Shown here: piece by piece, positions 18,134-33,300 of the stretch
Position numbering within the stretch: position 1 is the stretch's first letter
Layout of the letters: each line of letters starts with the position of its first letter
DNA from: Candidatus Rhodoferax mariagerensis
GTDB taxonomy: Bacteria > Pseudomonadota > Gammaproteobacteria > Burkholderiales > Burkholderiaceae_C
DNA length: 64,000 bases
NCBI GenBank assembly: GCA_016719055.1
Contig: JADKAW010000018.1
Location: forward strand, 2,015-66,014
Direction: 5' to 3'
The notes under the pieces: generated by a model
The model's input: the letters and a program-made list of their open reading frames with translations, nothing else
What the model was told of the DNA's origin: nothing
Database searches by the model: none
Position numbers and translations under genes: made by a program

Positions 18134-18835
18134 ATGTCAAGTTTGCTCATTATTGAAGACGACGAACTGCTGCGCGACGGGCTCAGTGCCCAGTTGGCGC
18201 AGGTGGGCCATGCCGTCACTGCCGCAGCCGATGGCGAAGCCGCGCAACTGCTGCTGGAGTCGCACCGTTTTGATGGGGTTGTGCTGGACCTGGGCTTACC
18301 AAAAATCAGTGGCATGGAACTGCTGAAGTGGTTGCGCAATCGCCTGCCAGCCTTGCCGGTGCTGATTTTGACCGCCCGCGATGGCATCGATGACCGGGTG
18401 CAGGGCCTCAATGCCGGCGCAGATGATTACCTGACCAAGCCATTCAACATGGCCGAACTGCAGGCGCGCCTGAGTGCCATGCTGCGCCGCGCCCGCTTGC
18501 CGGCGTTTGGTGGCACGCTGGAGGTGGCCAGCGCTGCCACCTGCCGGCTGCGTGTGGATGCCACCCTGCCACAAGCCTGGCTGGGTGATGAGGCGCTGGA
18601 ACTCACACAGCGTGAATGGGCCTTGTTGTCGCTGCTGGTAACCCATGCCGGGCGCGTGGTCAGCCGTGAGGACGTGCTGGAAACCTGGCAGTCCGAGCCC
18701 GGTGACGGGCCGGGCGTGGCCTCGAATGCGCTGGAGGTCTATATCCACCGCCTGCGCCGCAAACTGGTGGACTCGGGGCTCAACATTCGCAATGTGCGCG
18801 GCTTGGGCTATATGCTGGAGTCCACCACGGCATGA
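18134..18835 (+). CDS. OmpR/PhoB-family response regulator
   Basis: MSSLLIIEDDELLRDGL..., a receiver Asp in VVLDLGLP, and a winged-helix C-terminus (VRGLGYML). Confidence 0.9.
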   Translation: MSSLLIIEDDELLRDGLSAQLAQVGHAVTAAADGEAAQLLLESHRFDGVVLDLGLPKISGMELLKWLRNRLPALPVLILTARDGIDDRVQGLNAGADDYLTKPFNMAELQARLSAMLRRARLPAFGGTLEVASAATCRLRVDATLPQAWLGDEALELTQREWALLSLLVTHAGRVVSREDVLETWQSEPGDGPGVASNALEVYIHRLRRKLVDSGLNIRNVRGLGYMLESTTA

Positions 18836-20268
18836 GTCCGCTGGCCCGTCAGGCGGTCCCGCCTGCGCCGTCCACCGCAATGCTCCGGCAAGGCTTGTCA
18901 CTCAAGCGCCAGTTGCTGATCTGGCTGCTGCTGCCTCAACTGGTGCTGTTACTGGTGGGTGGGGTGCTGGCCTACCGAGTGGCCCTGAGTTATGCCGAAA
19001 AAGCCATTGACCAGTCGCTGACCCAGTCGGTGCGCTCACTGTCGCGTCAGGTCAAGCCGGTGGGTTCCGGCTTGCTGATTGATTTTCCGCGCGCCGCGCA
19101 AGACATCATTGAGCAGGACCCCAAGGACCGGGTCAGTTACATGGTGTCGTCGCCGCCCGGCAGCTTTTTGCTGGGTAATGGCAAACTTCCCGGGCCGGAG
19201 CAGCCGGCGCCGTTCATGGCCAACGAAACGGTGCTGTACAACGCCCAGATTGACGGGCGCGCCATGCGCGTGGCGCTGCTGGAGGTGGACTACGGTGACA
19301 GCCAGTCGCCGCAGCGCATGCGGGTGCAGCTGGCCAAAAGCCTGGCGGTGCAGCAGCGCCTGACCACCGAGCTGATCGCCGACATGCTGGTGCCCTTGCT
19401 GTTGCTGGGTGCAGTCTTGAGCATGCTGGTGTATGGCGGCATTTCGCGCGGCCTGCAGCCCCTGACCAGGTTGCAGGCCCAGCTGGGGGACCGCAGCGAA
19501 CCTGCACTGTCGGCCCTGTCGCCGATTGAGCTGACCCAGGCGCCACAAGAAGTGCACGCACTGGCTGCGGCGGTGAACCAGCTGCTGTCGGCGGTGCGGC
19601 GTAGCCTGGGGCAGGAAAAGCGCTTTTTGAACGATGCAGCACACCAGTTGCGCACGCCGCTGGCTGGCCTGATCAGCCAGACCGAGCTGGCGCTGACCGA
19701 AACCGACCCCGATGCCTTGCGCGAGCGCTTGAACAAGGTCTTGTCCGGCGCGCAACGCAGCGCCCATCTGGTGCACCAGTTGCTGTCGCTGGCGCGTAAC
19801 GAGGTCGAGGTCAGGCTTGCCCCGCTAGATATTGCCGAGCTGGCACGCGATGTGGCGCGGCAATGGACTCCCCGCGCGCTCAAAGCCGGCATTGATCTGG
19901 GCTTTGAGGGGGCCGATCATCTGTTGGTGATGGGTGAAGCCTTGTTGTTGCGCGAAGCGCTGAGCAATCTGATTGACAACGCGTTGACCTACGCCGGACC
20001 CAACAGCGAAGTCACCCTGAGCGCGCAGGCCAGCGGGGCACAGGTGTTGGTCGCCGTTCAGGACAACGGCGTGGGCCTGTCAGAGGCTGACTTGCCCCAT
20101 GTGTTTGAGCGTTTCTGGCGTGCCAGCCATGTGCCTGGTGGCTGTGGTCTGGGACTGGCCATCGTGAACGAGATTGCCCAGCGGCATGGGGGCAGCGCCA
20201 GCGTGACTGCCGTGCTGCCGCAGGGTTTGCGGGTGCAATTGTTGCTGCCGCGCGCCAACCATGACTGA
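18832..20268 (+). CDS. Sensor histidine kinase (two TM, HAMP, HisKA, HATPase_c)
   Basis: H-box FLNDAAHQLRTPL, N-box LIDNALTY, and G-boxes DNGVGL and GGCGLGLAIV. Its ATG overlaps the response regulator stop (ATGA). Confidence 0.9.
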   Translation: MSPLARQAVPPAPSTAMLRQGLSLKRQLLIWLLLPQLVLLLVGGVLAYRVALSYAEKAIDQSLTQSVRSLSRQVKPVGSGLLIDFPRAAQDIIEQDPKDRVSYMVSSPPGSFLLGNGKLPGPEQPAPFMANETVLYNAQIDGRAMRVALLEVDYGDSQSPQRMRVQLAKSLAVQQRLTTELIADMLVPLLLLGAVLSMLVYGGISRGLQPLTRLQAQLGDRSEPALSALSPIELTQAPQEVHALAAAVNQLLSAVRRSLGQEKRFLNDAAHQLRTPLAGLISQTELALTETDPDALRERLNKVLSGAQRSAHLVHQLLSLARNEVEVRLAPLDIAELARDVARQWTPRALKAGIDLGFEGADHLLVMGEALLLREALSNLIDNALTYAGPNSEVTLSAQASGAQVLVAVQDNGVGLSEADLPHVFERFWRASHVPGGCGLGLAIVNEIAQRHGGSASVTAVLPQGLRVQLLLPRANHD

Positions 20269-20373: not shown

Positions 20374-22959
20374 GTGAACGATCTCGAGACCTCTTTAAGC
20401 CTGGCTGGCAGCAACGCTGTGGCCACGGGCAATCGCACGCCCGGGGTAGACGCGGCTACTCCGGCTGCAGAGTCTGAAAACCCCTGGAAGCTGGCGCTGG
20501 AAGGCTCGGCCGCAGGCATCTGGGACTGGAATCTGGTCACCGGCGCGCAAACCCATTCGCCTCGCTGGGAGGAAATGATCGGGTACGGCGCAGGTGAACT
20601 TGGCGAGGGTTATTCAGAATTTGAAAAGCGCTTGCATCCGGACGACGCAGCCGGACAACAGACCGCGATCCGCGCCTATCTGGAAGGCCGAGCCAGCAGC
20701 TATGCCTATGAGCTGCGCATGCGCTGCAAAGATGGCAGCTGGAAATGGATTTTGTCGACCGGCATGGTCGTGGCGCGTGATGCCCAGGGCCGGCCCACCC
20801 GCATGATTGGCATCCACACGGATATTGGCGAGCGCAAAAAAAGTGAACAGGCGCTTAGGGAGCTGAACACCGCGTTGCAGGAAAAATCGAGTCTTTTACA
20901 AACCACCTTGACCCACATCAGCCAGGGTATTTTGGTGTTTGATGAGGCGCGCCGCATCATCGGCTTTAACCCGCGTGTGTGTGAATTGCTTGAGTTGCCG
21001 GCCGAGCTTCTGGCGTCGCGACCCGATTTGTCGATGGTTAGCCGGTTTCAGAATGAGCGCGGAGATTTCGGTTCAGACAGCAAGCTGGTGAGCCAGAATG
21101 CCCGCTCTTTTGTGTTGACCAACGGGGTTGGTGAGCCACCGCTGGACTACCTGCGCGAAACCCCGGCGGGGCGCATCCTGGAGGTCAAGTCGCAGATGTT
21201 GCCGGACGGCGGAATGGTCCGAACTTTTGCCGACATCACCGACTACGTCAAGGCCAAGGCGGCGCTGCAAGAAAATGAAGAGCGCTGGAAGCTGGCGCTT
21301 GAGAGCACCGGCGATGGTGTCTGGGACTGGCATATTCCGTCGGGCGAGGAGTACTTTTCAAGCAGCCTGCTGCAGATGTATGGCCTGGATGAGGGTGACA
21401 TCAAGAACAACGCCTCAGAACTCGACCAGCGCACCCACCCGGACGACATTGCGCAGCTCAACCAGCATCGCCAGGCCCATTTTGACGGCCTGACGCCCAC
21501 GTATGTCAATGAGCATCGGGTGCGTTGCAAGGATGGCTCCTGGAAATGGGTGCTGACACGCGGCATGGTGATCAGCCGTGATGACCATGGCAAACCCTTG
21601 CGCATGATTGGCACGCACACTGACATCACCGAGCGCAAGGTGTCCGAGGCCACCATCTGGCGCCAGGCCAACTTTGACGCGCTGACCGGTTTGCCAAACC
21701 GCCGCATGATGCGTGAGCGCCTGGGTCAAGAGCTCAAAAAATGCCGGCGCGACAATCTGCAACTGGCATTGCTGTTCATTGACCTGGACCGATTCAAGGA
21801 AGTCAATGACACGCTGGGGCACGATCAGGGCGACCAGCTGCTGGCTGACGCGGCGCGGCGCATTGCCCACTGTCTGCGCGAGGTCGACATCGTGGCACGC
21901 ATGGGGGGTGACGAGTTCACTGTGATCGTGACTGAATTGCAACACATCGCTGACCTGGAAGTGGTGTTGCAAAAGCTGCTCAGAACCCTGGGGACGGCCT
22001 TCACATTGGGGATGGCGCAGGTTTTTATTTCGGCCAGCATTGGCGTCACGGTTTATCCCGGAGATGCCCTGGAAATTGAAGAACTGTTGAAAAACGCCGA
22101 CCAGGCGCTGTATGTGGCCAAGGGGGCGGGCCGCAACCGCTTTAGTTTTTTTACACCCGCCTTGCAAGAGGCGGCCCAGTGGCGCGCACAACTGACGCAA
22201 GACCTGCGCGCTGCGCTGCAAGCGCAGCAGTTTCGGCTGGTCTATCAACCCATTGTGGCGCTGGCCACCGGGGTTGTTCACAAGGCTGAAGCGTTGGTTC
22301 GCTGGCAGCACCCCACCCGCGGCTTGATCAGCCCGGCAGAGTTCATACCGGTGGCAGAAAGCAGCGGTTTGATTGTGGCGCTGGGTGAATGGGTCTTTCA
22401 GCAGGCGGCCCATCAGGTCAAAGCCTGGCGGAGCAGCCTGCACGCAAGCTTTCAGATCAGTGTCAACAAGTCACCAGTGCAGTTTGAAAACCCGGCGCCT
22501 GGGCAGGTACCGTGGATAGAACAGCTCAAGGCGCTGGGCTTGCAGGGTGATTGTCTGGTGGTGGAAATCACCGAAGGCCTGTTGCTGTCCACCAGTGACA
22601 ATGTGATTGGTCAGCTGCTGGCGCTTAGCCAGGATGGTATTGGCGTTTCACTGGACGACTTTGGCACCGGCTATTCGTCGCTGTCTTATTTGCAGAAATT
22701 TGACATTGACTTTGTCAAGATCGATCAGTCGTTCGTGCGGCACCTGGCTCCTGACTCGACAGATCTGGCACTGTGTCAGGCCATTATTGCCATGGCGCAT
22801 GCGCTGGGCATGAAGGTGATTGCCGAGGGGGTTGAAACCAAAACCCAACGCGACTTGCTCCTGACTGCCGGCTGTGATTTCGCCCAGGGTTATTTTTTTT
22901 CAAGACCTTTGCCAACGGCTGAATTTGAGGTTTTTGTAGCCTCTTTTGTATTCGAGTAG
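20374..22959 (+). CDS. PAS-PAS-PAS GGDEF-EAL protein (cytoplasmic)
   Basis: 861 aa with a GTG start. It has REVDIVARMGGDEF (I-site plus GGDEF) and EALVRW (EAL). Confidence 0.9.
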   Translation: MNDLETSLSLAGSNAVATGNRTPGVDAATPAAESENPWKLALEGSAAGIWDWNLVTGAQTHSPRWEEMIGYGAGELGEGYSEFEKRLHPDDAAGQQTAIRAYLEGRASSYAYELRMRCKDGSWKWILSTGMVVARDAQGRPTRMIGIHTDIGERKKSEQALRELNTALQEKSSLLQTTLTHISQGILVFDEARRIIGFNPRVCELLELPAELLASRPDLSMVSRFQNERGDFGSDSKLVSQNARSFVLTNGVGEPPLDYLRETPAGRILEVKSQMLPDGGMVRTFADITDYVKAKAALQENEERWKLALESTGDGVWDWHIPSGEEYFSSSLLQMYGLDEGDIKNNASELDQRTHPDDIAQLNQHRQAHFDGLTPTYVNEHRVRCKDGSWKWVLTRGMVISRDDHGKPLRMIGTHTDITERKVSEATIWRQANFDALTGLPNRRMMRERLGQELKKCRRDNLQLALLFIDLDRFKEVNDTLGHDQGDQLLADAARRIAHCLREVDIVARMGGDEFTVIVTELQHIADLEVVLQKLLRTLGTAFTLGMAQVFISASIGVTVYPGDALEIEELLKNADQALYVAKGAGRNRFSFFTPALQEAAQWRAQLTQDLRAALQAQQFRLVYQPIVALATGVVHKAEALVRWQHPTRGLISPAEFIPVAESSGLIVALGEWVFQQAAHQVKAWRSSLHASFQISVNKSPVQFENPAPGQVPWIEQLKALGLQGDCLVVEITEGLLLSTSDNVIGQLLALSQDGIGVSLDDFGTGYSSLSYLQKFDIDFVKIDQSFVRHLAPDSTDLALCQAIIAMAHALGMKVIAEGVETKTQRDLLLTAGCDFAQGYFFSRPLPTAEFEVFVASFVFE

Positions 22960-23089
22960 CGTGCGCGGTTCAATCTGTCAAAAAATATAAGCAGAATTTG
23001 ACTTTGCTCAAAGTCTGATGTGATTCGATGCTGACAATGTTATGGCACCTATCCGTTTGCTTGAATGCTTATTACGTCTGGAGATTTTT

Positions 23090-24031
23090 ATGAAAATTAC
23101 CGAAGTTCACCGGAGTCTCGCGCTGATCTTTGGCAGTTGCCTGCTGGCTACTTCGTTGTCTGCGCAGGCCGCACCCAAGGGTGCCAAAGCGATTTTTGAC
23201 AGCGGCGGCGGCGGCGGCACGATTGGTATGTCGGTCAACGCTGCACGCCCGGCCACACCGGTCGCAAATGCCGAGCCAGTGTCCCAGAGGTATGTGGGTA
23301 TTTCTTACCAGATCATGGCCATTGAAAACGATGGCCAGATGCGGCCAGTGTCAAAAAACCGCACCTTTCGTTCAGGTGAGCGCGTCAGAATTCTGGCCAG
23401 CACCAATCGGCCAGGCTACTTGACAGTGGCCAACATTGGCACCTCGGGCCGGATGACCGTGCTGTTTAGCGAGTATGTGGACGCCTACAGGATGACCCAG
23501 ATTCCGCAAAACAGCAATTTGCGTTTTGATGGCAATCCTGGTACAGAAAACGTGTTGATCATGTTGTCCAACGAGCCCAACCCGATCGCGGGGCCTTCCA
23601 ACAGTGTGGTGTCGGCACCCCCTGCGCCTACTTATCCGACGCAGGTATCAACACCGGCCCCAGCGCCGGCCTACCCCGCACCAGTATCGGCACCCTATGT
23701 GCCGCCGCCGCCCATGCCGGGCACCGATACCGCAACAGCGCCAGCCTACCCAGCGCTGCCACCTGAGCAGGCCAGTGCCAGTTTGGTGGCCTCGCTCGAC
23801 GGTGCCAAGAGTCTCAAAGCCAAAGGGTCCAAAGATCTGATGGTGGAAGACAGCATGGAAAACTCCTACACGGTCGTGTCTCCCAGACAAGGAGGCTACA
23901 AGGCCGTCAGCGGTGGTGCCAAAGATTTGATCATGGAGTCAACAGAAGGTACCAATTACGGCATGGTGCCGGTGGCCGCTGTTTCTGGGGGCGGCATCCT
24001 GACGCTAGAAATCAAACTTAAACATCGCTAA
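23090..24031 (+). CDS. Secreted DUF4384-like protein with Pro-rich linker and C-terminal G-[AS]-K-D-L motifs
   Basis: Signal peptide MKITEVHRSLALIFGSCLLATSLSAQA. FRSGERVRILASTNRPGYLTVANIGTSGRMTVLF...GTENVLIMLS resembles DUF4384. A PAPxYP-rich linker follows. GGAG lies before the ATG at 23090. Confidence 0.7.
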   Translation: MKITEVHRSLALIFGSCLLATSLSAQAAPKGAKAIFDSGGGGGTIGMSVNAARPATPVANAEPVSQRYVGISYQIMAIENDGQMRPVSKNRTFRSGERVRILASTNRPGYLTVANIGTSGRMTVLFSEYVDAYRMTQIPQNSNLRFDGNPGTENVLIMLSNEPNPIAGPSNSVVSAPPAPTYPTQVSTPAPAPAYPAPVSAPYVPPPPMPGTDTATAPAYPALPPEQASASLVASLDGAKSLKAKGSKDLMVEDSMENSYTVVSPRQGGYKAVSGGAKDLIMESTEGTNYGMVPVAAVSGGGILTLEIKLKHR

Positions 24032-24034
24032 CCG

Positions 24035-24059
24035 ACAACGGCTATCTGCCGTTGTTTTG
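24035..24059 (+). terminator. Possible terminator after the DUF4384-like gene
   Basis: ACAACGGC-tatct-GCCGTTGT followed by TTT. Confidence 0.45.
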
Positions 24060-24117
24060 CAATGTCGTAGACGTTAATTAATATTGACGGGCTATTGTGG
24101 CCCGGGAGATGCAACAA

Positions 24118-24822
24118 ATGAAAAGACCTTATACGCGCTCGGTAGCCAAAGTCATGCTGCCCGTGTTCTTGACTGCCTGTGCAGCGCTACCGCCGCCAGG
24201 AACCCGCTTGACTGACCAAGAGCGCGCTGAGGCCCAAAAAACCTGCGTGAATCAGTACGTTGTAGGGGGTGCCATCGGCGGAGCACTTCTGGGCATGCTG
24301 GTCTCAAGCAGCAAAGACCGTACGCAGGGTGCGGTGGTCGGTGCTATTGCCGGCGGCGCTCTGGCACACAGTTATGCCTGGGGCAAGTGCTTGTCGTATT
24401 ACTCTGACACCAACAGTTTCCCGGTTGCCAACGCCCAGCAGACGGCTGCGGCAGTGGGCTACACGGCCAGTCGGGGTAACGAAGTGCGTATCCAGAGTTT
24501 TGTCGTGACTCCAAGCCAGATTGCACCTGGGGGCAATCTCAAGCTCAATGGTTCTTACTATGTGATGGCGCCTGATGGCCAGCAGCAGGTCAAGGTGATT
24601 GAAACCCGCACCGTGTACTACCAGGATCCCAAAGACAACTCATGGAAAGAACTGGGTTCAGAAACAACGCCCATCACTGCGGCACTTGGCAGTCGTCGGT
24701 CCGAAGGACAAACCGGCATGCCGGTCGAGGTGGCCGAGGGGCGCTACCGCGTGACGTTCAAGGTCAGTGCGCTGGGTCGCGAAGATCAAGCCTCGCAGGA
24801 AGTCGTGATCAAAAAGTCTTGA
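24118..24822 (+). CDS. Lipoprotein with glycine-zipper segment and beta-rich C-terminal domain
   Basis: Lipobox VFLTAC and a glycine zipper GGAIGGALLGMLV...GAVVGAIAGGALA (Rick_17kDa/SlyB-like). The start could also be 24097 or 24109. Confidence 0.65.
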   Translation: MKRPYTRSVAKVMLPVFLTACAALPPPGTRLTDQERAEAQKTCVNQYVVGGAIGGALLGMLVSSSKDRTQGAVVGAIAGGALAHSYAWGKCLSYYSDTNSFPVANAQQTAAAVGYTASRGNEVRIQSFVVTPSQIAPGGNLKLNGSYYVMAPDGQQQVKVIETRTVYYQDPKDNSWKELGSETTPITAALGSRRSEGQTGMPVEVAEGRYRVTFKVSALGREDQASQEVVIKKS

Positions 24823-24828
24823 CCAACC

Positions 24829-26100
24829 ATGAACTGCCGTCGTAACAAGCCGATTTTCCTGTTATTTGCGTTGTTGTTGGCGCTGGCGTTGCCCGTGTTC
24901 GGGCAGCAAGCGTCGCCAACACCAGTGACGCAGCAGCATTTGCAGATCATCAATTCGGCTTTTGCCCGCAACGGGGTGGTCAACGGGCGGGTCGAGTTTG
25001 ATGCCTACGGCAGGGTCGAGCTCAAAGGTGATTATGTCGACGAGCCAGAGGTTGACCGGGCTTTTTCGCTGGCGCAAGTAGTGGTGGGCGTCAAGTGGGT
25101 GTCGCCAGTCACACCAGAAAACATCCAGGTCAAAACTTGGGAAAAGAAGCTTGGCAACCTCTTTGCCCGTGCCAATGTGTTGCAGCCATCGGTGCGTGGA
25201 GACGGCATGCCCGGGCCAATCCGCAACCGTTATGCTGTGGTCGTTGGGGTAGGGCGCTTCAAGTATGGCATTCAGCCGCTTGAATATGCTGCCCGAGATG
25301 CGCTGGCTTTTTATCAGTTTCTGACCGATCCGCGCCGGGGGCAGTTCCGCCCCGACAATGTTGTTTTCCTGACCGACGAAAACGCCACGCGCTCCAATGT
25401 TGCCGTTGCGCTTGACAAGCTGCGTCAACTGGCAGGCGAAGATGATCTGGTGACGGTGTATATCAGCAGTCACGGCAGCCCGCCAGACAAAAAAGGGGCG
25501 GTCAATGTGGTGACGTATGACACCGAGACCAAACCCCGCGAGCGCATCTGGTACACCTCGGTGACCGAAGATATGCTCAAAGAATTTGTCGAAGGTGTCA
25601 AAGCCAAGCGCTTGGTCATGGTGCTCGACACTTGCTACAGCAATGGTGCCTACCGGGCTGTCCCGGGCTTTTTGCCGCCTGGTGGCAAATCACTTGGCGC
25701 GGGTGACAGCGAAGGTTACGGCATCAGCCAGGAGTCCAGCCGACGCATGCTCGGTGGTGCCAAGGACCTGGTGCTGGAAGACGACACGCGCCGCGCCACA
25801 ACTGCCAAATCAGTCAATATTGGATCGACCGAGCCCTATGGGAAAGTGCTCATTGGCGCCAGTGGCTCAGGCGAGCAGTCGTGGGAGTCGGAAAAGCTGC
25901 GAAACAGCATTTTCACCTACTACTTTGTCGATGGACTCAACCGCTACAGTGGTTCGGTGCAACAAGCATTCAACTATGCCAAACCTCGTGTTGCCAGCCG
26001 CGTCAAAGAAGAAAAAGGTCACGACATTGACCAGAACCCGCAAGCCATGGCGACCATGCCCAACTGGGACATGCGCTTGACGCAAGCGGCCACACGTTAA
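24829..26100 (+). CDS. Secreted BON-domain caspase-like protease (peptidase C14 / orthocaspase)
   Basis: Signal peptide MNCRRNKPIFLLFALLLALALPVFG. The N-terminus is BON-like (GRVELKGDYVDEPEVDRAFSLAQVVVGVKWV). The C14 core RYAVVVGVGRFKY...YISSHGS (His codon 25471) and VLDTCYSNGA (Cys codon 25633) is present. The gene starts 6 bp after the preceding gene. Confidence 0.8.
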   Translation: MNCRRNKPIFLLFALLLALALPVFGQQASPTPVTQQHLQIINSAFARNGVVNGRVEFDAYGRVELKGDYVDEPEVDRAFSLAQVVVGVKWVSPVTPENIQVKTWEKKLGNLFARANVLQPSVRGDGMPGPIRNRYAVVVGVGRFKYGIQPLEYAARDALAFYQFLTDPRRGQFRPDNVVFLTDENATRSNVAVALDKLRQLAGEDDLVTVYISSHGSPPDKKGAVNVVTYDTETKPRERIWYTSVTEDMLKEFVEGVKAKRLVMVLDTCYSNGAYRAVPGFLPPGGKSLGAGDSEGYGISQESSRRMLGGAKDLVLEDDTRRATTAKSVNIGSTEPYGKVLIGASGSGEQSWESEKLRNSIFTYYFVDGLNRYSGSVQQAFNYAKPRVASRVKEEKGHDIDQNPQAMATMPNWDMRLTQAATR

Positions 26101-26120: not shown

Positions 26121-26786
26121 ATGCACACCACGAAAAACGCATCCCTATGGCTTAGCACTTTGGCCAGTGCTGTTGTTCTGCTGTCAGGCTGCGACAAAAT
26201 TCCAGGATTGGGCAAACCCGCAGAAGCACCCGCACCCGTGGCAGCACCGGTTGCACCGCCACCTGTTGCGGACCCTGCCCCGGCAACCATTGCCGTAGCA
26301 CCTCCTACAGTTGCAACCTCACCTGCACCCGCGGCTGGCCCCAGTCTGGAAGTACAGAGCCACATCAAGCAAGCATTTGCTTACATCAGTATGGCAAAAA
26401 ATGCGCAAGGCTCAATCCGCGAAGAGAACATTGATAACGCGCTCAAAGAGTTTACGGTTGCGATTCAAAAAGATCCCAACTACGCCGAAGCCTATTCCAA
26501 CCGGGCTGCCACCTACATGCAGCAGAAAAAATTCAACAAGGCCGACGATGATTTGCGGCGCGCCAAAGAGTTGTCACCAGACAGTCCATCCGTGCGTTAC
26601 AACTACGCCAGCTTGCATTCGCTCAAAGGGAACGTCGACCTGGCGCTGGATGAGGTCGATGCCGCCTTGACCAAAGGCTTTTCGGACTATGACGCGCTGC
26701 GCCTTGATCCGGACCTGAATAATGTGCGAAAACACCCAGAATTTCGAAAAATTCTTGAAAAACACAAGGTGTTTATCGTCAAGTAA
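26121..26786 (+). CDS. TPR-repeat lipoprotein
   Basis: Lipobox LLSGC, an Ala/Pro-rich linker, then TPR units (DPNYAEAYSNRAATYMQQKKFNKADDDLRRAKELSPD...). Confidence 0.75.
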   Translation: MHTTKNASLWLSTLASAVVLLSGCDKIPGLGKPAEAPAPVAAPVAPPPVADPAPATIAVAPPTVATSPAPAAGPSLEVQSHIKQAFAYISMAKNAQGSIREENIDNALKEFTVAIQKDPNYAEAYSNRAATYMQQKKFNKADDDLRRAKELSPDSPSVRYNYASLHSLKGNVDLALDEVDAALTKGFSDYDALRLDPDLNNVRKHPEFRKILEKHKVFIVK

Positions 26787-26830: not shown

Positions 26831-27220
26831 ATGCGCCAATTCGTCCGTTCCCTGGTCATGGTGCTGGTCGCGTGTGTAGGTTCGGACTTATGGGCACAGC
26901 AGCCTGACCCCACTTCCACGCGCCGGTTCGCAGATTGCCTGTGCCGTTGCTCCAGCGGCTGGGCAGCCCATATTGGCGTGTTTTATGACCCGGATCACAA
27001 GCATGCCGCCACTTGCGAAAGTGCTGGCCCGTGTATTGGCGGCATTGGAGCGTTTGGCTGCTCCAGCAGGCACTATCTGAGTGCGACGACCGAATGCAGT
27101 CGCAGTTGCTGGGAGCAGGCGTTTGCCGGGCAGGCTTTCAACAACGGCACCATCACCGAGTTTTCTGACACGCTCAATCAGCGCTATCGACAGCGCCAAG
27201 GATCAACGGGCGGCAAATAG
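26831..27220 (+). CDS. Small secreted 8-cysteine protein (stand-alone copy of a module also found in the giant protein)
   Basis: 129 aa with a signal peptide. CLCRCSSGWAAHIGVFYDP...CESAGPCIGGIGAFGCSSRH...TECSRSCWE is about 66 percent identical (counted by eye) to residues encoded at 31707-31899. Confidence 0.65.
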   Translation: MRQFVRSLVMVLVACVGSDLWAQQPDPTSTRRFADCLCRCSSGWAAHIGVFYDPDHKHAATCESAGPCIGGIGAFGCSSRHYLSATTECSRSCWEQAFAGQAFNNGTITEFSDTLNQRYRQRQGSTGGK

Positions 27221-27308: not shown

Positions 27309-30300
27309 ATGAAACTATTTGGCTTTCGCACCCTTGCACAAGCGTTGGTCAGCCTCTGGCTGGTCGTTGCAGCCGGTCTGTTGCCAGCCTTCGGCGCATC
27401 CAATCAGGAATTCCCATACCCGCTGGGCGAGCATATTCTGGCCAGCATCCTGCGTCATGAAAAGCACACGGATGCGTCACTGCTGCTGCTCACGCAGAAC
27501 CTCAAATGGTATGAACAGGAAAAGGGCAAACTGCCAGGCCCGATACAAGATGAAATTCAACACCTGAGAATCAATTTGGCGGGCGAGGTAGCCCAATCTT
27601 CGGCGCGCCAACTCGGCGAAGCCGAGGCGGCTTTTGCTGCCACTGGCTCCTGGAAGCCAGGGCGTGACATGGACATTGTTTACATGGGCAAAAATGGCGA
27701 CGCAGCAGCCCAGTCGATTGCCCGCAACTATGAAGCCCGCAGTGCCAATATTCTGGCCAGCGCCGAAATCGACCCCATTCTGAAAAGTTATAGCGGTGAT
27801 GTCCCGCGCAGCCTCACCGCCAACAGCTTGGCCGTCTGTACCACCGAGCTTCCCAACTTTGGCTATGAAGACCTGAACAAGGCCTTTAACCAGGCCAAGC
27901 AGGCGCTCGCGCGCGGCGAATCAAAAGACGAGATTATGGCCACGCTGCGCCGTGACATCCAGCAAGCCATGGCCAACAACATGAACGGCCATTTTGCAGC
28001 GCAGGCCAACCCGGACTACTACGCCGGAGCCACCGGGCAGAAATGGTTTCAAGACACTTACCTAGACAAACCGGACAAAATGCGCACCTTCATGCAGAAC
28101 GAGAGTGGCAACTGGGTGCTCAAGCCGGGCGGCATCCAGGCGGTGCCTGCCGACATCGTTGAGCGTCTTGGTTTTGGCTCCATGGGTGGCTCGGGCGTCA
28201 AGTTTTCCAAGATCGCGTCGGACTACGCACTCTTCTTCTCGCACATGCATGGTGGTCCCTCTGACAACGCCAAATATGTGCTGCGGGTCTGGAAAGACAT
28301 GGGGTTAAATGCCATTCAGGATTTGAGTGCGGCTGAAGTCAAGATGCTGGCAGCGGCCAAGAAGATTGACTTGAAGCCATCGCAAGCGTCGCAAGAACTG
28401 GCCAAAATAGGGCTCAGTGTGGATGACTTCAATGCGAACATGTCGCGCATTCTGTTGAACTGGACCGAGTCGCAGTTGGTCAAAGACATGGACCTGCTGG
28501 TCACTGAACTGGGGTCGAGTTCAGCCAAAACGGTGGACGAACTCGACAAACTGCTGCGCCAGGCCAAAACCACCATGAACCTGAATGAACTGGTGGCGGG
28601 TCTGGATAAGCTCAAGGTGGCACCCCCGGAGGTGCGGGCACGCCTGATTGATCGGCTGAAAGCCAAGTTTGGCAGCACGCCAGCGGGCGTTGCCGCCATC
28701 AACTTTGTCATGCGCAATCTGGGCCTGCTGGGCGACTCCAGCGGTGAGCTGACGCGCCGTTTGGTCATCATCCTGAAAGACATGGGGAAAATCCAGCCGC
28801 AAGATGCTGACGCCTTGCTGCGCGGCGAACCTGCTTCTGACGCGGCCCAGGCGCAGATGAAACGGGCACGGCAGGAGATTGCTGCGCTCAGTTCCGGTGG
28901 CATGGTGGAATTTGACGACGCATTGGATGTGGACCGACTGATGGAGGACTGGCGCAAAGCCAAGCCCGATGCCTTGCTGCAGTCACCCAGCGACGAACTG
29001 AAGAAAACCCTGGAAGAATTGCGCGGCTCGGTCGATGAGGCCAGGCTCAAAGAACTTGGTTGGGCCGACGATGAGATTGCCGCCCACCGGCGTGTGCTGG
29101 ACCGCATGCGCAAGGATGCCATGCGCAAGCTGGGTCAAAAACTCGAACCTCGCCTGGTCAAAGGTGGGGTAAGCCTGCGCAACTTCCAGCAAAAAATGCG
29201 CGAATTGATCTTTAGCCCCGCCTACACAAAATTTGGCGATGCCAGCTCATCCGTAGGAGTGTTTGATGCCGTGGTGGGGGTCGCAGCCGGCTTGTACTCC
29301 ACTTATGACATTCTCAACAACCAGCGCTTGTCGCCTGCCGACGAAGCGCAGGCGCTTGAAAACGCCTGGGTCACGGCTATTCCGATCGTGGGCGACTTTG
29401 CTCAGGGCTTGATCACCGGCGGTCAGGCTTTTTACGAGGGCGACAAGGGCAAGGCACTGGAGGCCGGTCTGTGGATCACCATCGGCACCATGGGCTGTGT
29501 ACCAGGTGGGCAGTTGCCGGCCGTTATTCTTGGCATCGGGCTGGCGACCAAACCCATTGTGGCTGGATCCTACGATGCCCGTCAGGCACAGCATCTGGTG
29601 CAGGCCTGGATCGAGTCAGGCAAATGGAGCAAGGACAAGCCTCGCAAGCTGCTGGGTTTGTATGACCGAGCCTCGGGCGATCCCGAGATCTATCTGGACA
29701 TCAAATACTCTGAACTACTGACTGACAAGGGCAAACTTCCCTATAAATCTACCCGCTTGGGTGACGTCAGTATCAACCAGTCGATTCGTGACTACGCCGA
29801 AAAATATGTGACGCCGCAGTATCCGGCCATCAAGTCGATCCGCGAAGCCTTGCTCAGCGTGTACCCCGATTTCAATGACAAGGAGTGGAGTGACGAATTC
29901 TCGGCGAGTCTCAAGATTGATGCGCGTGGAGGCAAGGGTAGCAAGATCCTGTTTCGTTCTTACTTCCAGTTGCATGGCAAGGCGATGGTGCAAACCATCA
30001 ACCATCTCAAACAATGGGCTGAAGACGAGATGCGCGCGCTCAAGGATTACGACTCAGAAGCTGCGCGCCTGCGCGACGAACTCCGCACACTTGAGCGTGC
30101 CCTGCAAACCGGCAATCTGGTCAGCAATGCCGATGCTTCAGTCGAGGCCTACAGCAAGATCGTTGCCAACTTGTGGGAACAAGAGAGCCTGCCGTTGGCC
30201 AGGCTGCGGATTTACGAGCACTACGTCAATACCTACAGAACGATTGAAGGCAAACTGCGCCGGGTGATGGACATTCTGAAAGAAGCCAGCAACCCCTTCC

Positions 30301-33300
30301 TGCCGCCGGGCTGGCACCTGACCGGTTACCCCGAACTGGACCGAGACCGGGTCGACAAGCTCAGCGCCAGCATGGAAAACGGTCGCAAGGGTGTGATTGA
30401 GGACATTGAAAACACTCTGAAAGAGTTTGGCATTCGCAGCACGCGTTATGACAAAAACAACGCTTGCCACAAGGCGGCGTTTGATGCGCTGGCGCCTTTG
30501 CGCTACAAATATGCCTTCATTGAATTTCAGGCGCTGTATTTCAAGGCGTTGGCAGAAGGTAGTTCCACCTGGTCATCGGCTTTTGAGACTGCCAAGGCAC
30601 GTTATCAGGAGTCGCGCGCGCAGGTGCTGCGCAACATCGGCAGCAATCTGCAGTCCCACCCGCATGTCATGATGCTGATGGAGCAAAAAGCCATGACCGA
30701 TGCGTTCATGAGCTTTGTGGTGGCTGTGCCCTACGCGCTGGCATCGACTGAAGTTGGCGTGTACCAGTCTGCCGCACGTGACTACGAGTTGCGCCAGTAC
30801 AGCGCGGGGCTGGACTACCAGCTCGCCAAGGGCCGCAGTGGCAAAGTTGGGCGTGACCTGGCAGACTGCCTGCAGGCGCAGTTGCAGATTGACCTGCAGC
30901 TGTCCAACCCGCAACCCGAAGCAGGTACCGACGTCACTGCTAGTTATCGCCTTGTCAAGGGCGAAACCCACGCGGATGTGGTTTGGGACTGGAAGCTCGA
31001 AGGTGCGCTGGTGAAAAAGACGGCCGAACCAGGTAGCTTGGTGTTTACCGTGAATGGACCCGGCAAGCTGACGGTTTTTTTGCGCGACTGGTACAACCCC
31101 AACACAAGCAAATATGGCAAGGTTCTGGCCCAAATCAGTGCCGATATTCAGCCTGGCCTGCCGTCAGATGTGAAGGTGTTTGTCAGCGGGCCGACCCAAA
31201 CCGAATTGGGCAGTAGCGTAAGTTATTTCGCCTCCATCGACGCCAAGCCGGGTGTGGCCCAGGCGATGCTGGCCAATGCCCACATTGAATGGCGGCTCAA
31301 TGGCGACGCCGGCGCAGGCAGCGACAGCAGTTTCCGCTTTTCACCGATACGCACGGGCAGCTACAGCGTGGTCGCTACCGCCTACGTGATGGAACGTGGC
31401 AAAAAGCGGGTCATCGCCAGTTCTCGTCCTGTTACTTTGCAAGTGCGTGACGGCATGGACAAAGACAAAGACGGTGCTGCCAACCCGGACAAGGGCAAAC
31501 GCGATGGTGAACCGGACAAGCCCAAAGAAGCCCCGTCCTGTAGCTACACCTATTCTGAATGGGGCGAGTGCAGCCGCGCCACCAAGAAACAAACCCGCAG
31601 CGTGACCGTTACCCAGCCCGCGGGCTGCGTGGAAAAAGCCAAGCCGGTGCTGGAGCAAGGCTGCACCCCGCCACCGAGCGAAGAGGACAAGAAAAACAGC
31701 TACCTCAACTGCCTGTGTCGTTGCTCCAGTGGCTGGGCCGGACACATCGGTGTCTGGTATGACCCCGAGCAAAAGACGGTGCCGGAGTGCAAGAGCTCCG
31801 GCCCCTGTATTGGCGGTATTGGCGCCTTTGGCTGCTCCAGCCGGCATTTTTTCAACTCGTCAACCGAATGTGCCAAAGGCTGCTGGGAAGGCGCTTACGG
31901 TAAGGGATCGTTTGACGCTGAAAAAGCCAACAAAATGGCCAAAGAAGAGAACAAGAAGTACAAGAAGCCGCCAACGGTGAAGATCAACGCTTCCAAAAAT
32001 CCGGCAGACTTTGGCGACATCGTGAGCCTGACGGCGCAGGCCAGCGAAGGCAGTGGCGGTTACAAGTGGAATTGGGGCGGCTGTGCGCAGGACGCCAAGG
32101 ACAACACGGCCAAGGTGCTTAACTCGCGCAGTTGCCAGGCTTGTCAGGCCTCGGTCACGGTGACCGACTCTGATGGTGATTCGGCGTCTGACAACCTGAC
32201 GATCCAGTGCACCGCGCTCAAGGTCAAGCTCACCAAAGAAAGCCCCAAAGAGAGCCGGCTGCCAGTGGGCAGCTCAGCCAAATTCCTGGCTGAGGTGATG
32301 TCAGGCACGCAGGCGGCGTCGGGCAGCTTCTCGTACATCTGGGAGCGCAATCCGGACGCCGTTTTTGGCGATCCCAAAAACCCGGCTTATGAAACCAAGG
32401 GCGGTGCGCAGTCACGCAACACCGCCAGCTTTGGCAAGCTGGGCACGATTCCGATCTGGGTCTCGGTGCTCAAAGAGGTCGATGGCCGCAAGATGACGAT
32501 TGGCGAGTCCGAGCAGATCATGATGGAAGTCGTCAAGCCCAAGCTCACCCTCAGCGCCGAACCGAAAGACGCCCTGGTTGGCCAGGAGATCAAGATCACC
32601 GTGCAAGAAGAACCCAAGATGAGCGACGATTTGTTGTCGTTCTGGTGGGAAATCAGTGGTGAGGCCAACAACCCAGGGCCAGTCCCCAATGTGCCCAACA
32701 GCCGCGCTTATTCGTTCAAACCCAAGTCTGACAAACCAGTGACTGTCACTGTGCATGCCAAGGCCAAAGACGGCGGTGATGAACTGGGCGTTGAAAAAAT
32801 CACCTTACAAGCCAAAAAGCCATCGATAACCGTCACCGGGCCGAAGATTGCCGGACCGGCGCCCATGATCTGGAAAGAGGGTGTCGGGCTGGTGTCCGTG
32901 GGCCAGCAGGTTGTTGAAGACCAGCGGGTTGAGTTTGCCGTGACCGTGTCGCCCGAATTGAAACAGGAGCTGCGCTACCAATGGAGCGTGAAGCCCGAAG
33001 GCTGTAGCCTGAGTGCGCCATCATCCAAAGAAACCGGCATCACCTGCGCCAAGACCGGCGGCTATGCGCTCACGGTCATCGTGCGCAACAGCGAAGGCGC
33101 CGAACTCGGCAGCGGCGAGGGCAGCCTGAACGTCACGGTGTCGCAATCCGACATCAAAAAAGGCAAGCAAAAAGACGAAGCCGCCAAAAAACTGGAGCAA
33201 GCCCGAGCGTTGTGGAGTCAGGGCAAGATTGACGAGGCACTGGCACTGTTGGCAACCGTGGCCAGCACCGAGCCCCAATTGGCCGCTCCGGTGAGCAATC

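Follow-up and report, generated by a model that had tools for sequence, protein, structure and literature searches.

In the present study, we analysed a 64 kb window, which is the whole stretch of DNA considered here, and found that a short motif centred on a basic residue recurred in the linker of a secreted caspase-fold protease (gene C) and towards both ends of a secreted DUF4384 protein (gene A) encoded two genes upstream. From sequence comparison, we concluded that the active site of the protease would be what reads this motif, and the DUF4384 neighbour is very probably this protease's own substrate or regulator. The likely roles of the motif are self-cleavage of the linker, together with either cleavage or pseudosubstrate binding of the partner. 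On balance, we favour the interpretation that the motif is a substrate-type element read by the C14 protease of the cassette and that A is its trans-substrate. We infer both the cutting of the peptide bond after the Lys and the effect of that cut. A sequence-only reading of the same DNA had already proposed the motif as a recognition or cleavage site, and this overall proposal was supported by conservation, by co-variation of the two proteins, by the loop predicted around the caspase copy and by a switch in the S1 pocket.

The protease, its DUF4384 neighbour and their cassette

Gene C (24829..26100; all features described here lie on the + strand) encodes a predicted secreted C14 (caspase-fold) peptidase, as indicated by Pfam, AF2 and Foldseek. 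The protein consists of a signal peptide, a small N-terminal alpha/beta domain (aa 35-100) and a caspase domain (aa 134-409). The caspase assignment made earlier was confirmed by Pfam, which matched Peptidase_C14 (PF00656) to aa 134-409 with an E-value of 4.2e-15 and 56.5 bits, against a cut-off of 21.4. The AF2 model had a mean pLDDT of 77.7, with values above 90 in the core, and its best Foldseek matches were MALT1, GSU0716 (3bij), metacaspases and caspases (E 1.7e-11 to 1e-9). The family profile of C also matched AtMC4 (6w8s, E 2.4e-8). Alignment to AtMC4 placed the catalytic His215 and the S1-pocket Ser213 in S213-S214-H215 (25465..25473; AtMC4 S84/H86), and the catalytic Cys269 and the S1-pocket Asp267 in D267-T-C269 (25627..25635; AtMC4 D137/C139); the roles of the AtMC4 S1-pocket residues were taken from 10.1101/2020.03.09.983940. 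A p10-like pocket segment, S351-W-E353-S354 (25879..25890), follows the S-x-[DE] pattern, and S351/E353 would correspond to AtMC4 Ser350/Asp352 by sequence pattern rather than by structural superposition. All six residues, namely S213 and H215 (SSHG), D267 and C269 (DTCYSNG), and S351 and E353, were invariant in 43 diverse C homologues. The acidic S1-pocket set of Arg/Lys-specific C14 peptidases (D267, S213, S351/E353) was present in C.

Gene A (23090..24031) encodes a secreted DUF4384 (Ig-like) protein, as judged from the ORF, Pfam, the starts of homologues and AF2. Its start is likely M17 of the ORF opening at 23042, and the homologues begin at MKITEV. The signal peptide is followed by an N-terminal motif, the DUF4384 beta-sandwich, a Pro-rich linker and a motif-bearing C-terminal tail, which ends in IKLKHR. 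The earlier assignment to DUF4384 was borne out by a match over the full model length (PF14326, aa 108-179, E 7.8e-11, 42.3 bits versus a cut-off of 27), and AF2 predicted this domain as a beta-sandwich with pLDDT above 90. All the motifs of A lie outside the Pfam domain. Since A and C both carry a signal peptide, the two proteins are expected to share a compartment.

Two lipoproteins complete the cassette. Gene B (24097..24822), a constant member that separates A from C in the majority of loci with sufficient flanking sequence, encodes a glycine zipper between two Cys and a C-terminal beta-rich domain (Pfam Rick_17kDa_Anti / Gly-zipper, E 4e-8; lipobox LTAC read from the sequence); in the loci L083-L085 it is replaced by Gly-zipper + SH3_3. 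Gene D (26121..26786), the fourth constant member, encodes a TPR lipoprotein (Pfam TPR_2, E 6.6e-11; lipobox LSGC read from the sequence) and is found after C in the majority of loci that have sufficient sequence downstream. The order A-B-C-D was retained in most of the 81 related loci with enough flank, and A and C were also encoded together in divergent lineages with other gene orders; in one protein (P0243), a caspase and a DUF4384 domain are naturally fused. The family extended over Betaproteobacteria, Nitrospirota, Syntrophales and Thermodesulfovibrionales.

Copies of the motif and their conservation

In the six-frame translation of the window, G[AS]KDL had exactly three matches, all of them in genes A and C. 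The four peptides named in the sequence-only reading were all found on the + strand, and their coordinates were correct to within 3 nt. In gene A, KGSKDLMVEDS spans 23822-23854 (the interval 23825-23851 given earlier is its inner 9-mer), GGAKDLIMEST spans 23912-23944 and KGAKAIFDS spans 23177-23203; GGAKDLVLEDD spans 25753-25785, which is aa 309-319 of the caspase. Two more copies had been overlooked, PGGKSLG in the C linker and GAKSLK in A. When the proteins were shuffled, G[AS]KD[LIM] was expected 0.0011 times in A and 0.0021 times in C, compared with the two copies observed in A (reached in 0/200,000 shuffles) and the one observed in C. The looser pattern G-x-K-x-[LIM] occurred four times in A (0.16 expected) and twice in C (0.23 expected); none was found in the products of B, D and E, and the count in F was at chance level. 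Codon usage was unlike between the copies, so gene conversion was rejected as the source of the identical peptides.

The linker of the caspase (aa 282-332, 25672..25824) lies in the stretch from the Cys strand (E261-269) to the core strand that comes next (E338-343), and its pLDDT in the AF2 model was below 50 throughout. It is predicted to be flexible and is nonetheless strongly conserved in sequence. It comprises about 50-65 residues with two invariant Lys, which makes it shorter than plant type II linkers, and it is predicted to be disordered. Caspase site 1, G285-G-K287-S-L-G290 (PGGKSLG, aa 284-290; 25681..25698), is a candidate site with K287 as P1; P283, G285, G286, K287, S288 and L289 were invariant in the 43 diverse homologues. 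At the same position, shortly past the catalytic Cys, many distant bacterial caspase-family proteins have a G-A-K-[GA]-[LM] element, and P0254, P0258, P0260 and P0269 hold a KD-type motif there. Caspase site 2, G310-A-K312-D-L-V-L-E-D-D319 (25756..25785), is a candidate self-cleavage or self-inhibition site with K312 as P1; here G310, K312 and D313 were invariant in the same 43 homologues. The G-x-K-D-[LIM] core was present in one copy in each of 120/120 caspase homologues. Site 2 was retained by relatives with 33-58% identity, and in four lineages it carried R. The earlier statement that the motif lies past the Cys269 strand and ahead of the p10-like SWES strand was correct.

In A, the N-terminal motif G47-A-K49-A-I-F-D-S-G55 (23180..23206; candidate site, P1 = K49) begins about five residues past the predicted signal-peptidase site (…SAQA|APK). 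It had been described as the weaker copy; GAKAIFDSG is actually the most conserved stretch of A, in which G, A, K, A, F and G did not vary among 42 diverse homologues. An accessory copy, G254-A-K256-S-L (GAKSLK, aa 254-259; 23801..23815), resembles caspase site 1 (GGKSL) and was kept in most homologues, not in all. A motif 1, G262-S-K264-D-L-M-V-E-D270 (23825..23851; candidate site, P1 = K264), had invariant G, K, D and D270 in the 42 homologues and a pLDDT of about 54 or below 50. A motif 2, G292-A-K294-D-L-I-M-E-S300 (23915..23941; candidate site, P1 = K294), had invariant K, D and E and is predicted as the first beta strand of a C-terminal hairpin or small sheet (pLDDT 65-75); it is missing from the single-motif partners in L083-L085. 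Both C-terminal copies retained K-D-[LIMV] in 119/120 homologues of the DUF4384 protein, and the remaining one had three copies. The K-D pair was invariant in all three long copies in homologues down to about 40% identity. These results agreed with the expectation that the motif would be conserved in orthologues of both A and C, which held down to about 33-40% identity. The expectation that it would lie in an exposed linker rather than a buried strand held for the caspase copy, which AF2 placed in a low-confidence loop; A motif 2 was predicted as a beta strand of moderate confidence.

Joint variation of the motif and the S1 pocket

It had been suggested that the motif might co-vary in the two proteins, and in the gene pairs the motifs of A and C indeed changed together at P1, P4' and P5'. 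At P1, K was changed to R in two separate lineages, in the caspase and the DUF4384 partner alike. In L083, the caspase has DARTLG and GSRDLVREDD, and its partner has GARALF and GSRDLIRED; in L082, the caspase has GSRDLFLDE, and its partner has SARALF and GSRDLMFED. In the Arg-type partners, known for only these two lineages, the N-terminal and the C-terminal motifs alike carry Arg. L084 and L085, the Lys-type relatives of L083, have K in both caspase and partner. In the SH3 lineage, the two proteins both have Arg at P4', which is hydrophobic elsewhere, and in L086 both have V in place of E at P5'. The co-variation of L and I looks perfect but reflects a single clade split and was given little weight. 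The K/R interchange is what would be expected for the P1 position of an Arg/Lys-specific clan CD peptidase.

The change at P1 was accompanied by a change in the pocket. About 220 Lys-type caspases had Ser at position 213, and three of the four Arg-types had Ala; P0291 is the Arg-type caspase that retains Ser at this position. We compared the four Arg-types with 30 diverse Lys-type caspases, in which 37 columns reached a conservation of at least 90%. Only 2/37 conserved columns were altered in at least two of the four Arg-types, and one of them was the pocket Ser213. A rough NJ tree set the four Arg-types apart, each beside Lys-types. In three of the four Arg-types, K to R occurs together with Ser213 to Ala, which connects the motif with the active site of the protease itself.

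These results bear on two other explanations. The motif copies could be independent structural elements, that is, similar strands or turns that arose by composition or convergence with no functional link. The strand predicted at A motif 2 would suit this explanation, as would the hhalign comparison, in which A motif 1 matched caspase residues 302-322 (E 4.8e-4) over just 20 columns with 32% probability; A and C showed no domain-level homology beyond this local match. However, statistics restrict the motif to A and C, it stays the same from phylum to phylum, and several lineages show matching changes in the two proteins; the unlike codon usage of the copies also means that gene conversion does not account for their identity. 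We strongly disfavour this explanation and regard it as very improbable.

The second explanation is that the motif is bound by a third party, either D through its TPR or the C-terminal domain of B, which would recruit A and C; the Lys would then not be P1. TPR domains bind short extended peptides, and D is constant in the cassette. The conserved acidic and hydrophobic prime side and the long-range co-variation would suit a peptide groove, and the motif lies in regions that AF2 fails to place. Against this, the change of K to R comes with Ser213 to Ala in the S1 pocket in three of the four Arg-types (one other conserved column behaves alike), and the caspase copy occupies the very position at which this fold is canonically processed. 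In addition, many distant caspase-family proteins keep G-A-K-[GA]-[LM] there in varied architectures, an observation that concerns the element and the architecture. Docking to a third party appears improbable to us.

Candidate mechanism and comparison with known systems

Under the favoured interpretation, the element G-x-[K/R]-x-[L/I], with the long form G-[AS]-K-D-[LI]-h-h-[ED], would be read by the active site of a periplasmic C14 protease, and its basic residue would be seated as P1 in the acidic S1 pocket formed by D267, S213, S351 and E353. In its linker, the protease would process itself at K287 and K312, or these copies would inhibit it in the manner of a type II metacaspase; a cut in the linker would separate the p20-like from the p10-like part. 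The copies in A at K49 and at K264 and K294 (with K256 possible) would make A the cognate trans-substrate, whose cleavage would trim the N-terminus and release a C-terminal tail of 35-65 residues. Several features fit this scheme less easily. A cut at K49 would remove just about six residues, which is odd for a substrate, and the position of A motif 2 in a small C-terminal sheet of the AF2 model may make free access doubtful. The strongest conservation lies on the prime side (D-h-h-h-E-D), with co-variation to P5', beyond the usual caspase-type subsites, which suggests an additional docking surface.

The same features are pertinent to a pseudosubstrate regulator, in which the termini of A would mimic the linker and compete with it for binding at the active site or at an exosite beside it, and A would not be consumed. 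In variants of this explanation, A could hold the protease inactive, or displace a self-inhibitory linker to activate it; having copies at its two ends, A could also clamp a single protease molecule or link two of them. At P1, P2', P4' and P5', A motif 1 follows caspase site 2, and this similarity over 8-9 residues resembles ligand mimicry rather than a minimal site. GAKAIFDSG is the most invariant stretch of A, even though so little would be freed there, and the linker Lys225 of AtMC4 fills the active site uncut until Ca2+ arrives. In the caspase-DUF4384 fusion P0243, the motifs are absent from the DUF4384 half, as would be expected if they only bring the two proteins together; this absence is equally compatible with recruitment and with cleavage as the role of the motifs. 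On the other hand, the same evidence suits a true substrate, three or four copies per partner are more typical of multi-site processing, and structure searches with A returned generic Ig-like folds alone, with no gasdermin-like, serpin-like or inhibitor-like scaffold. Sequence data read the same for binding without cutting and for cutting. We consider a pseudosubstrate rather unlikely, and cleavage of A remains the favoured interpretation.

A bolder extension, which we regard as distinctly unlikely, is that A and the protease evolve jointly as a matched pair with reprogrammable specificity; the cassette would then be a proteolytic switch of the periplasm that is complete in itself and for which no bacterial example has been described so far. 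Lys-type and Arg-type pairs would each have a fitting S1 pocket, and the ends of A would imitate the protease linker. Both cleavages would expose identical acidic neo-N-termini (D-h-h-h-E-D) that could act in trans; as loop-bundle-like strands, for instance, they might either complete the active site or block it. Alternatively, a released conserved C-terminal peptide of about 35 residues might act on the glycine-zipper lipoprotein.

Thousands of bacterial caspase homologues are known, and substrates have, as far as we are aware, been identified for very few of them. DUF4384, whose function is unknown, recurs beside caspase-like proteases. The present results name a candidate substrate or regulator, candidate scissile bonds in the enzyme (K287, K312) and the partner (K49, K264, K294), and a candidate specificity determinant (Ser213), all in a four-gene envelope cassette that spans several phyla. 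What these proteases cut has become a question reachable by a few simple experiments, for which the natural Lys-type and Arg-type pairs offer a ready-made specificity swap.

The proposed scheme shares its logic with two groups of known systems. In bacterial gasdermin operons, an adjacent caspase-like protease cuts the neighbouring product at a defined site and thereby switches it on, and the viral and cellular pseudosubstrate caspase inhibitors, such as p35 and CrmA, present a substrate-like loop to the active site. The cassette differs from these systems in that A is Ig-like only, and in its compartment and its partners (Gly-zipper and TPR lipoproteins). In type III-E CRISPR-Cas, the TPR-CHAT protease Csx29 cuts its dedicated partner Csx30 in a flexible linker and frees a fragment; in one Csx30 group the C-terminal domain is DUF4384, which is often fused to protease domains (10.1101/2022.08.17.504292). 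Csx29 is a CHAT-type protease activated by target RNA, whereas C belongs to C14, and the sole link is the recurrence of DUF4384 beside caspase-like proteases; we claim no membership.

The orthocaspase MaOC1 of Microcystis aeruginosa is, like C, a prokaryotic C14 peptidase, and it is specific for a basic P1; the comparison draws on its published properties. We know of no description of MaOC1 as exported. As of a 2017 review, MaOC1 was the one biochemically characterised bacterial caspase homologue; it processes itself when expressed, and its activity depends on this enzyme being cut (PMC5756287). It degrades an antitoxin encoded next to it, which provides a precedent for an orthocaspase with an adjacent target; its substrate is a toxin-antitoxin component, the cleavage sites of the antitoxin could not be determined in that work, and the parts of the report consulted mention no motif common to enzyme and substrate (PMC7935541).

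The closest comparison is AtMC4, an Arabidopsis type II metacaspase (6W8S/6W8R), which was the best PDB sequence match of the C family profile and among the top fold matches of C. The product of gene C is not filed as a type II metacaspase. In contrast to AtMC4, C is bacterial, is predicted to be exported and has an extra N-terminal alpha/beta domain; its linker is predicted to be disordered, whereas that of AtMC4 is a folded hairpin-plus-helices domain. C also differs in its conservation on the prime side of the Lys and in having a separate partner that carries copies of the linker site, none being described for AtMC4. The loop that carries the caspase copy in C is where AtMC4 holds and cuts its linker Lys225 (10.1101/2020.03.09.983940), and the counterparts of the AtMC4 pocket residues that hold this Lys are the invariant S213, D267, S351 and E353 of C. 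Both proteins have the His/Cys dyad and an acidic S1 pocket, to which an Asp at position -2 from the Cys, a Ser at position -2 from the His and an S-x-acid segment of the p10-like part contribute. Both also have a long linker with conserved basic residues that leads from the Cys strand to the p10-like strand; it is cleaved at multiple positions in AtMC4 and contains several candidate sites in C.

Gene cassette and occurrence of the shared motif

We analyzed four consecutive forward-strand genes, which encode, with domains assigned by Pfam, a secreted DUF4384 protein (A; ORF 23042-24031, likely start 23090), a glycine-zipper lipoprotein (B; 24097-24822), a secreted caspase-like protease of the Peptidase_C14 family (C; 24829-26100), and a TPR lipoprotein (D; 26121-26786). 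The order A-B-C-D was found again in most of the 81 related loci with enough flanking DNA. A single-protein scan of genome contigs yielded one locus only, and a metagenome scan with the alignment as query was required to obtain gene pairs. Literature searches on DUF4384 and on caspases with glycine zippers turned up no description of this cassette.

On the same strand, D was followed by E, a small secreted Cys-rich ORF of 129 aa (26831-27220), and then by F, an exported protein of 2806 aa (27309-35729). E shared 48% identity over 100 residues with an internal module of F (aa 1454-1553), including the pattern CLCRCSSGWA.HIGV.YDP...GPCIGGIGAFGCSSRH, and resembles a single domain of F that stands as a separate protein. 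F also carried a PKD domain, many TPRs, and a tandem repeat at 33888-34807 (168 bp or 56 aa, 5.5 copies, approximately 80% identity). A large protein with TPR repeats like those of F lay 3' of the cassette in a Rhodoferax MAG (L001), and F-like matches were found 3' of the cassette in some metagenome loci. Two ORFs lay directly upstream of the cassette; judged by their translations, the first (18832-20268) is sensor histidine kinase-like and the second (20374-22959, 861 aa) has GGDEF/EAL-type motifs. Homologues of both were present upstream in L001; these ORFs may be regulators of the cassette or mere neighbours.

The sequence-only reading had quoted four peptides from A and C, and all of them were present, at most 3 nt from where it had placed them. 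They correspond to GAKDLVLED in C (Lys312; site 2) and, in A, to GSKDLMVED (Lys264; motif 1), GAKDLIMES (Lys294; motif 2), and the N-terminal GAKAIFDSG (Lys49). Two copies had been overlooked, namely PGGKSLG in C (aa 284-290, Lys287; site 1) and GAKSLK in A (aa 254-259, Lys256). Translated in all six frames, the whole window contained G[AS]KDL three times, always within A and C. Shuffling gave expectations of 0.001 for G[AS]KD[LIM] in A and 0.002 in C, against two and one observed. The looser pattern G-x-K-x-[LIM] was found four times in A (0.16 expected) and twice in C (0.23 expected); B, D, and E lacked it, and F contained it about as often as expected by chance. A chance or purely structural resemblance between the motifs of A and C was effectively excluded. 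Domain-level homology between the A tail and the C linker was rejected, the hhalign match being local (20 columns, probability 32%, E 4.8e-4), and gene conversion was rejected as the origin of the copies because their codons differ. At the sequence level, the resemblance is that of a linear motif, with no shared domain.

Conservation and predicted structure of the motif segments

Every one of the 120 C homologues listed (59-100% identity), which came from Rhodoferax, Ideonella, Nitrospirae, Syntrophales, and Thermodesulfovibrionales, contained exactly one G[AGS]KD[LIMV] at the same place. In a 43-sequence alignment, Gly310, Lys312, and Asp313 were invariant, as were Pro283 and Gly285-Leu289. 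Of 120 A homologues (39-95% identity), 119 retained exactly two K-D-[LIMV] copies. In a 42-sequence alignment, the invariant residues were G, K, D, and D in motif 1 and K, D, and E in motif 2. The N-terminal copy had been described as weaker; it turned out to be the most conserved segment of A, since G-A-K-A-x-F-x-x-G at the mature N-terminus was invariant in the same alignment. We also searched 1.8 billion representative proteins exhaustively for distant caspases. Those at 33-58% identity retained G-[AST]-K-D-[LI]-h-h-[ED] in the linker after the catalytic Cys, and some of them had the motif at the site 1 position or had two copies. In many more distant caspase-family proteins, G-A-K-[GA]-[LM] occurred some 10-20 residues after the catalytic Cys. 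Judged from these sequences, site 1 (GGKSLG) seems to be shared across the family, and site 2 (GAKDLVLED) seems to have been added in the clade of C only.

The AlphaFold2 model of C had a mean pLDDT of 77.7, with a core above 90, and its fold matched the MALT1 paracaspase, Geobacter GSU0716, and metacaspases. Both copies of the motif in C lay between the strand of the catalytic Cys (261-269) and the following core strand (338-343), at aa 282-332, where the pLDDT was below 50. In the AlphaFold2 model of A, the DUF4384 β-sandwich was predicted with confidence, and motif 1 fell in a stretch with a pLDDT of approximately 54 or lower. The sequence-only reading favoured an exposed linker over a buried β-strand; in agreement with this, no buried strand was predicted for the C copy or for motif 1. 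Motif 2 was a less clear case, as it was predicted to be a strand (pLDDT 65-75) opening a small C-terminal sheet, which weakly approached the buried placement. A fold search of A returned generic Ig-like matches only, none with E below 0.001, and Pfam gave no match to the C-terminal 85 residues of A at E up to 1. In C, aa 28-134 (window 24910-25230) comprised an N-terminal α/β domain (aa 35-100, pLDDT 81-93) and, after it, a disordered spacer. This domain resembled a BON-type domain by eye, and Pfam gave no match to it at E up to 1.

Putative S1 pocket and co-variation of the gene pair

The best PDB match of the C family profile was Arabidopsis metacaspase 4 (AtMC4), with LDTC and SSHG of C aligned opposite SDSC139 and SGH86G, respectively. 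In AtMC4, self-cleavage occurs first at Lys225 of the linker, which lies between the catalytic residues in a pocket of Asp137, Ser84, Ser350, and Asp352 (10.1101/2020.03.09.983940). The counterparts in C, Asp267, Ser213, Ser351, and Glu353, were all invariant in the 43-sequence alignment, so a basic P1 residue would be expected for C by homology.

We then compared the motif copies within gene pairs, the main check put forward in the sequence-only reading. In 57 pairs, the residue after K-D was Leu in all three copies or Ile in all three. The same bipartition recurred in 21 of the 248 variable columns in A and in 10 of the 273 in C, indicating a single clade split; thus, we gave this agreement little weight as evidence of co-variation. 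Four caspase lineages (P0255, P0256, P0263, and P0291) had Arg in place of Lys in the linker motif; in a rough NJ tree, they were separate, each beside Lys-types. The partners of two of the four lineages were traced to contigs, L083 and L082. In L083, the caspase carried DARTLG and GSRDLVREDD, and the partner carried GARALF and GSRDLIRED. In L082, GSRDLFLDE in the caspase was accompanied by SARALF and GSRDLMFED in the partner. In L084 and L085, which are related to L083 and share its gene order, both proteins had Lys (GGKNLVRED with GAKALF and GAKDLMRDD). P4' was Arg in both proteins of the L083-L085 lineage, compared with a hydrophobic residue in the main family. P5' in L086 was Val in both the caspase (GAKDLVIVDE) and motif 1 of the partner (GAKDLVLVDN), compared with Glu in the main family. 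The motif therefore co-varied between the paired genes at P1, P4', and P5' in these loci. Within pairs, C site 2 and partner motif 1 were identical at 6.36 of 9 positions versus 5.63 ± 0.13 in shuffled pairings, and none of 5000 shuffles reached the former value, although this statistic ignores phylogeny.

In addition, 37 columns were conserved (at least 90%) among 30 diverse Lys-type caspases, and only two of these differed in two or more of the four Arg-type caspases. The first was Ser213, two residues before the catalytic His. It was Ser in all of the approximately 220 Lys-type sequences, Ala in P0255, P0256, and P0263, and Ser in P0291. The basic residue of the partner, that of the enzyme linker, and the S1-pocket residue thus changed together, which argues that the motif is read by the active site of the protease. 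The joint change with the pocket is the strongest argument for this reading. Reading by a third party, either the TPR protein D or the glycine-zipper protein B, is less likely because the pocket co-varies with the motif. An isopeptide or transpeptidation reaction with the Lys as nucleophile, an idea prompted by a weak Peptidase_C13 match, was excluded by the natural Lys-to-Arg variants.

Other features of these sequences were also recorded. The second changed column was Phe173 (window 25345-25347), with P, V, F, and V in the four Arg-type caspases. In L082 (4687-7686), a divergent Arg-type locus, the caspase gene was followed by that of a 999-aa protein with a Tubulin_2 domain and then by the TPR and DUF4384 genes; a tubulin-like protein within the caspase cassette was unexpected. 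In L083 (995-2029), L084 (1026-2063), and L085 (1139-2188), B was replaced by a longer protein that kept the Cys-flanked glycine zipper and had an added C-terminal SH3_3 domain.

Proposed mechanism and comparison with known systems

In the best-supported reading of the sequences, the basic residue of the motif would serve as P1 for the cassette's own protease, C. The linker copies in C would be sites at which the enzyme, like type II metacaspases, processes or inhibits itself, and the copies in A would make A the cognate substrate. We infer cleavage after the basic residue, which would trim the N-terminus of A and detach its conserved C-terminal tail. The main rival is that A acts as a pseudosubstrate regulator, with the active site still reading the motif. 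Conservation on the prime side, co-variation that extends to P5', and the near-terminal position of Lys49 fit a pseudosubstrate at least as well as a substrate. The same holds for P0243, a natural fusion from outside the window of a caspase (aa 42-427, 50% identical to C) and a DUF4384 domain (aa 461-537) without GAKAIF and without the C-terminal K-D motifs. In summary, the motif noticed in A and C by the sequence-only reading was present, was extended by further copies, and was conserved and co-varying; its interpretation as a candidate recognition or cleavage site is supported as far as sequence analysis goes.

A previous study has reported that DUF4384 is often fused to protease domains and that, in some Csx30 proteins, it forms the C-terminal domain; Csx30 proteins are cleaved by the caspase-like Csx29 (10.1101/2022.08.17.504292). 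The orthocaspase MaOC1 autoprocesses (PMC5756287) and degrades a neighbour-encoded antitoxin (PMC7935541). By sequence, C is a metacaspase-like enzyme with putative linker processing sites and a candidate neighbour-encoded target, a kind that is already known. What is unusual is that A, the candidate target, repeats the linker site of the enzyme at each of its termini, and that protease and partner occur naturally as matched pairs of the Lys type and of the Arg type.
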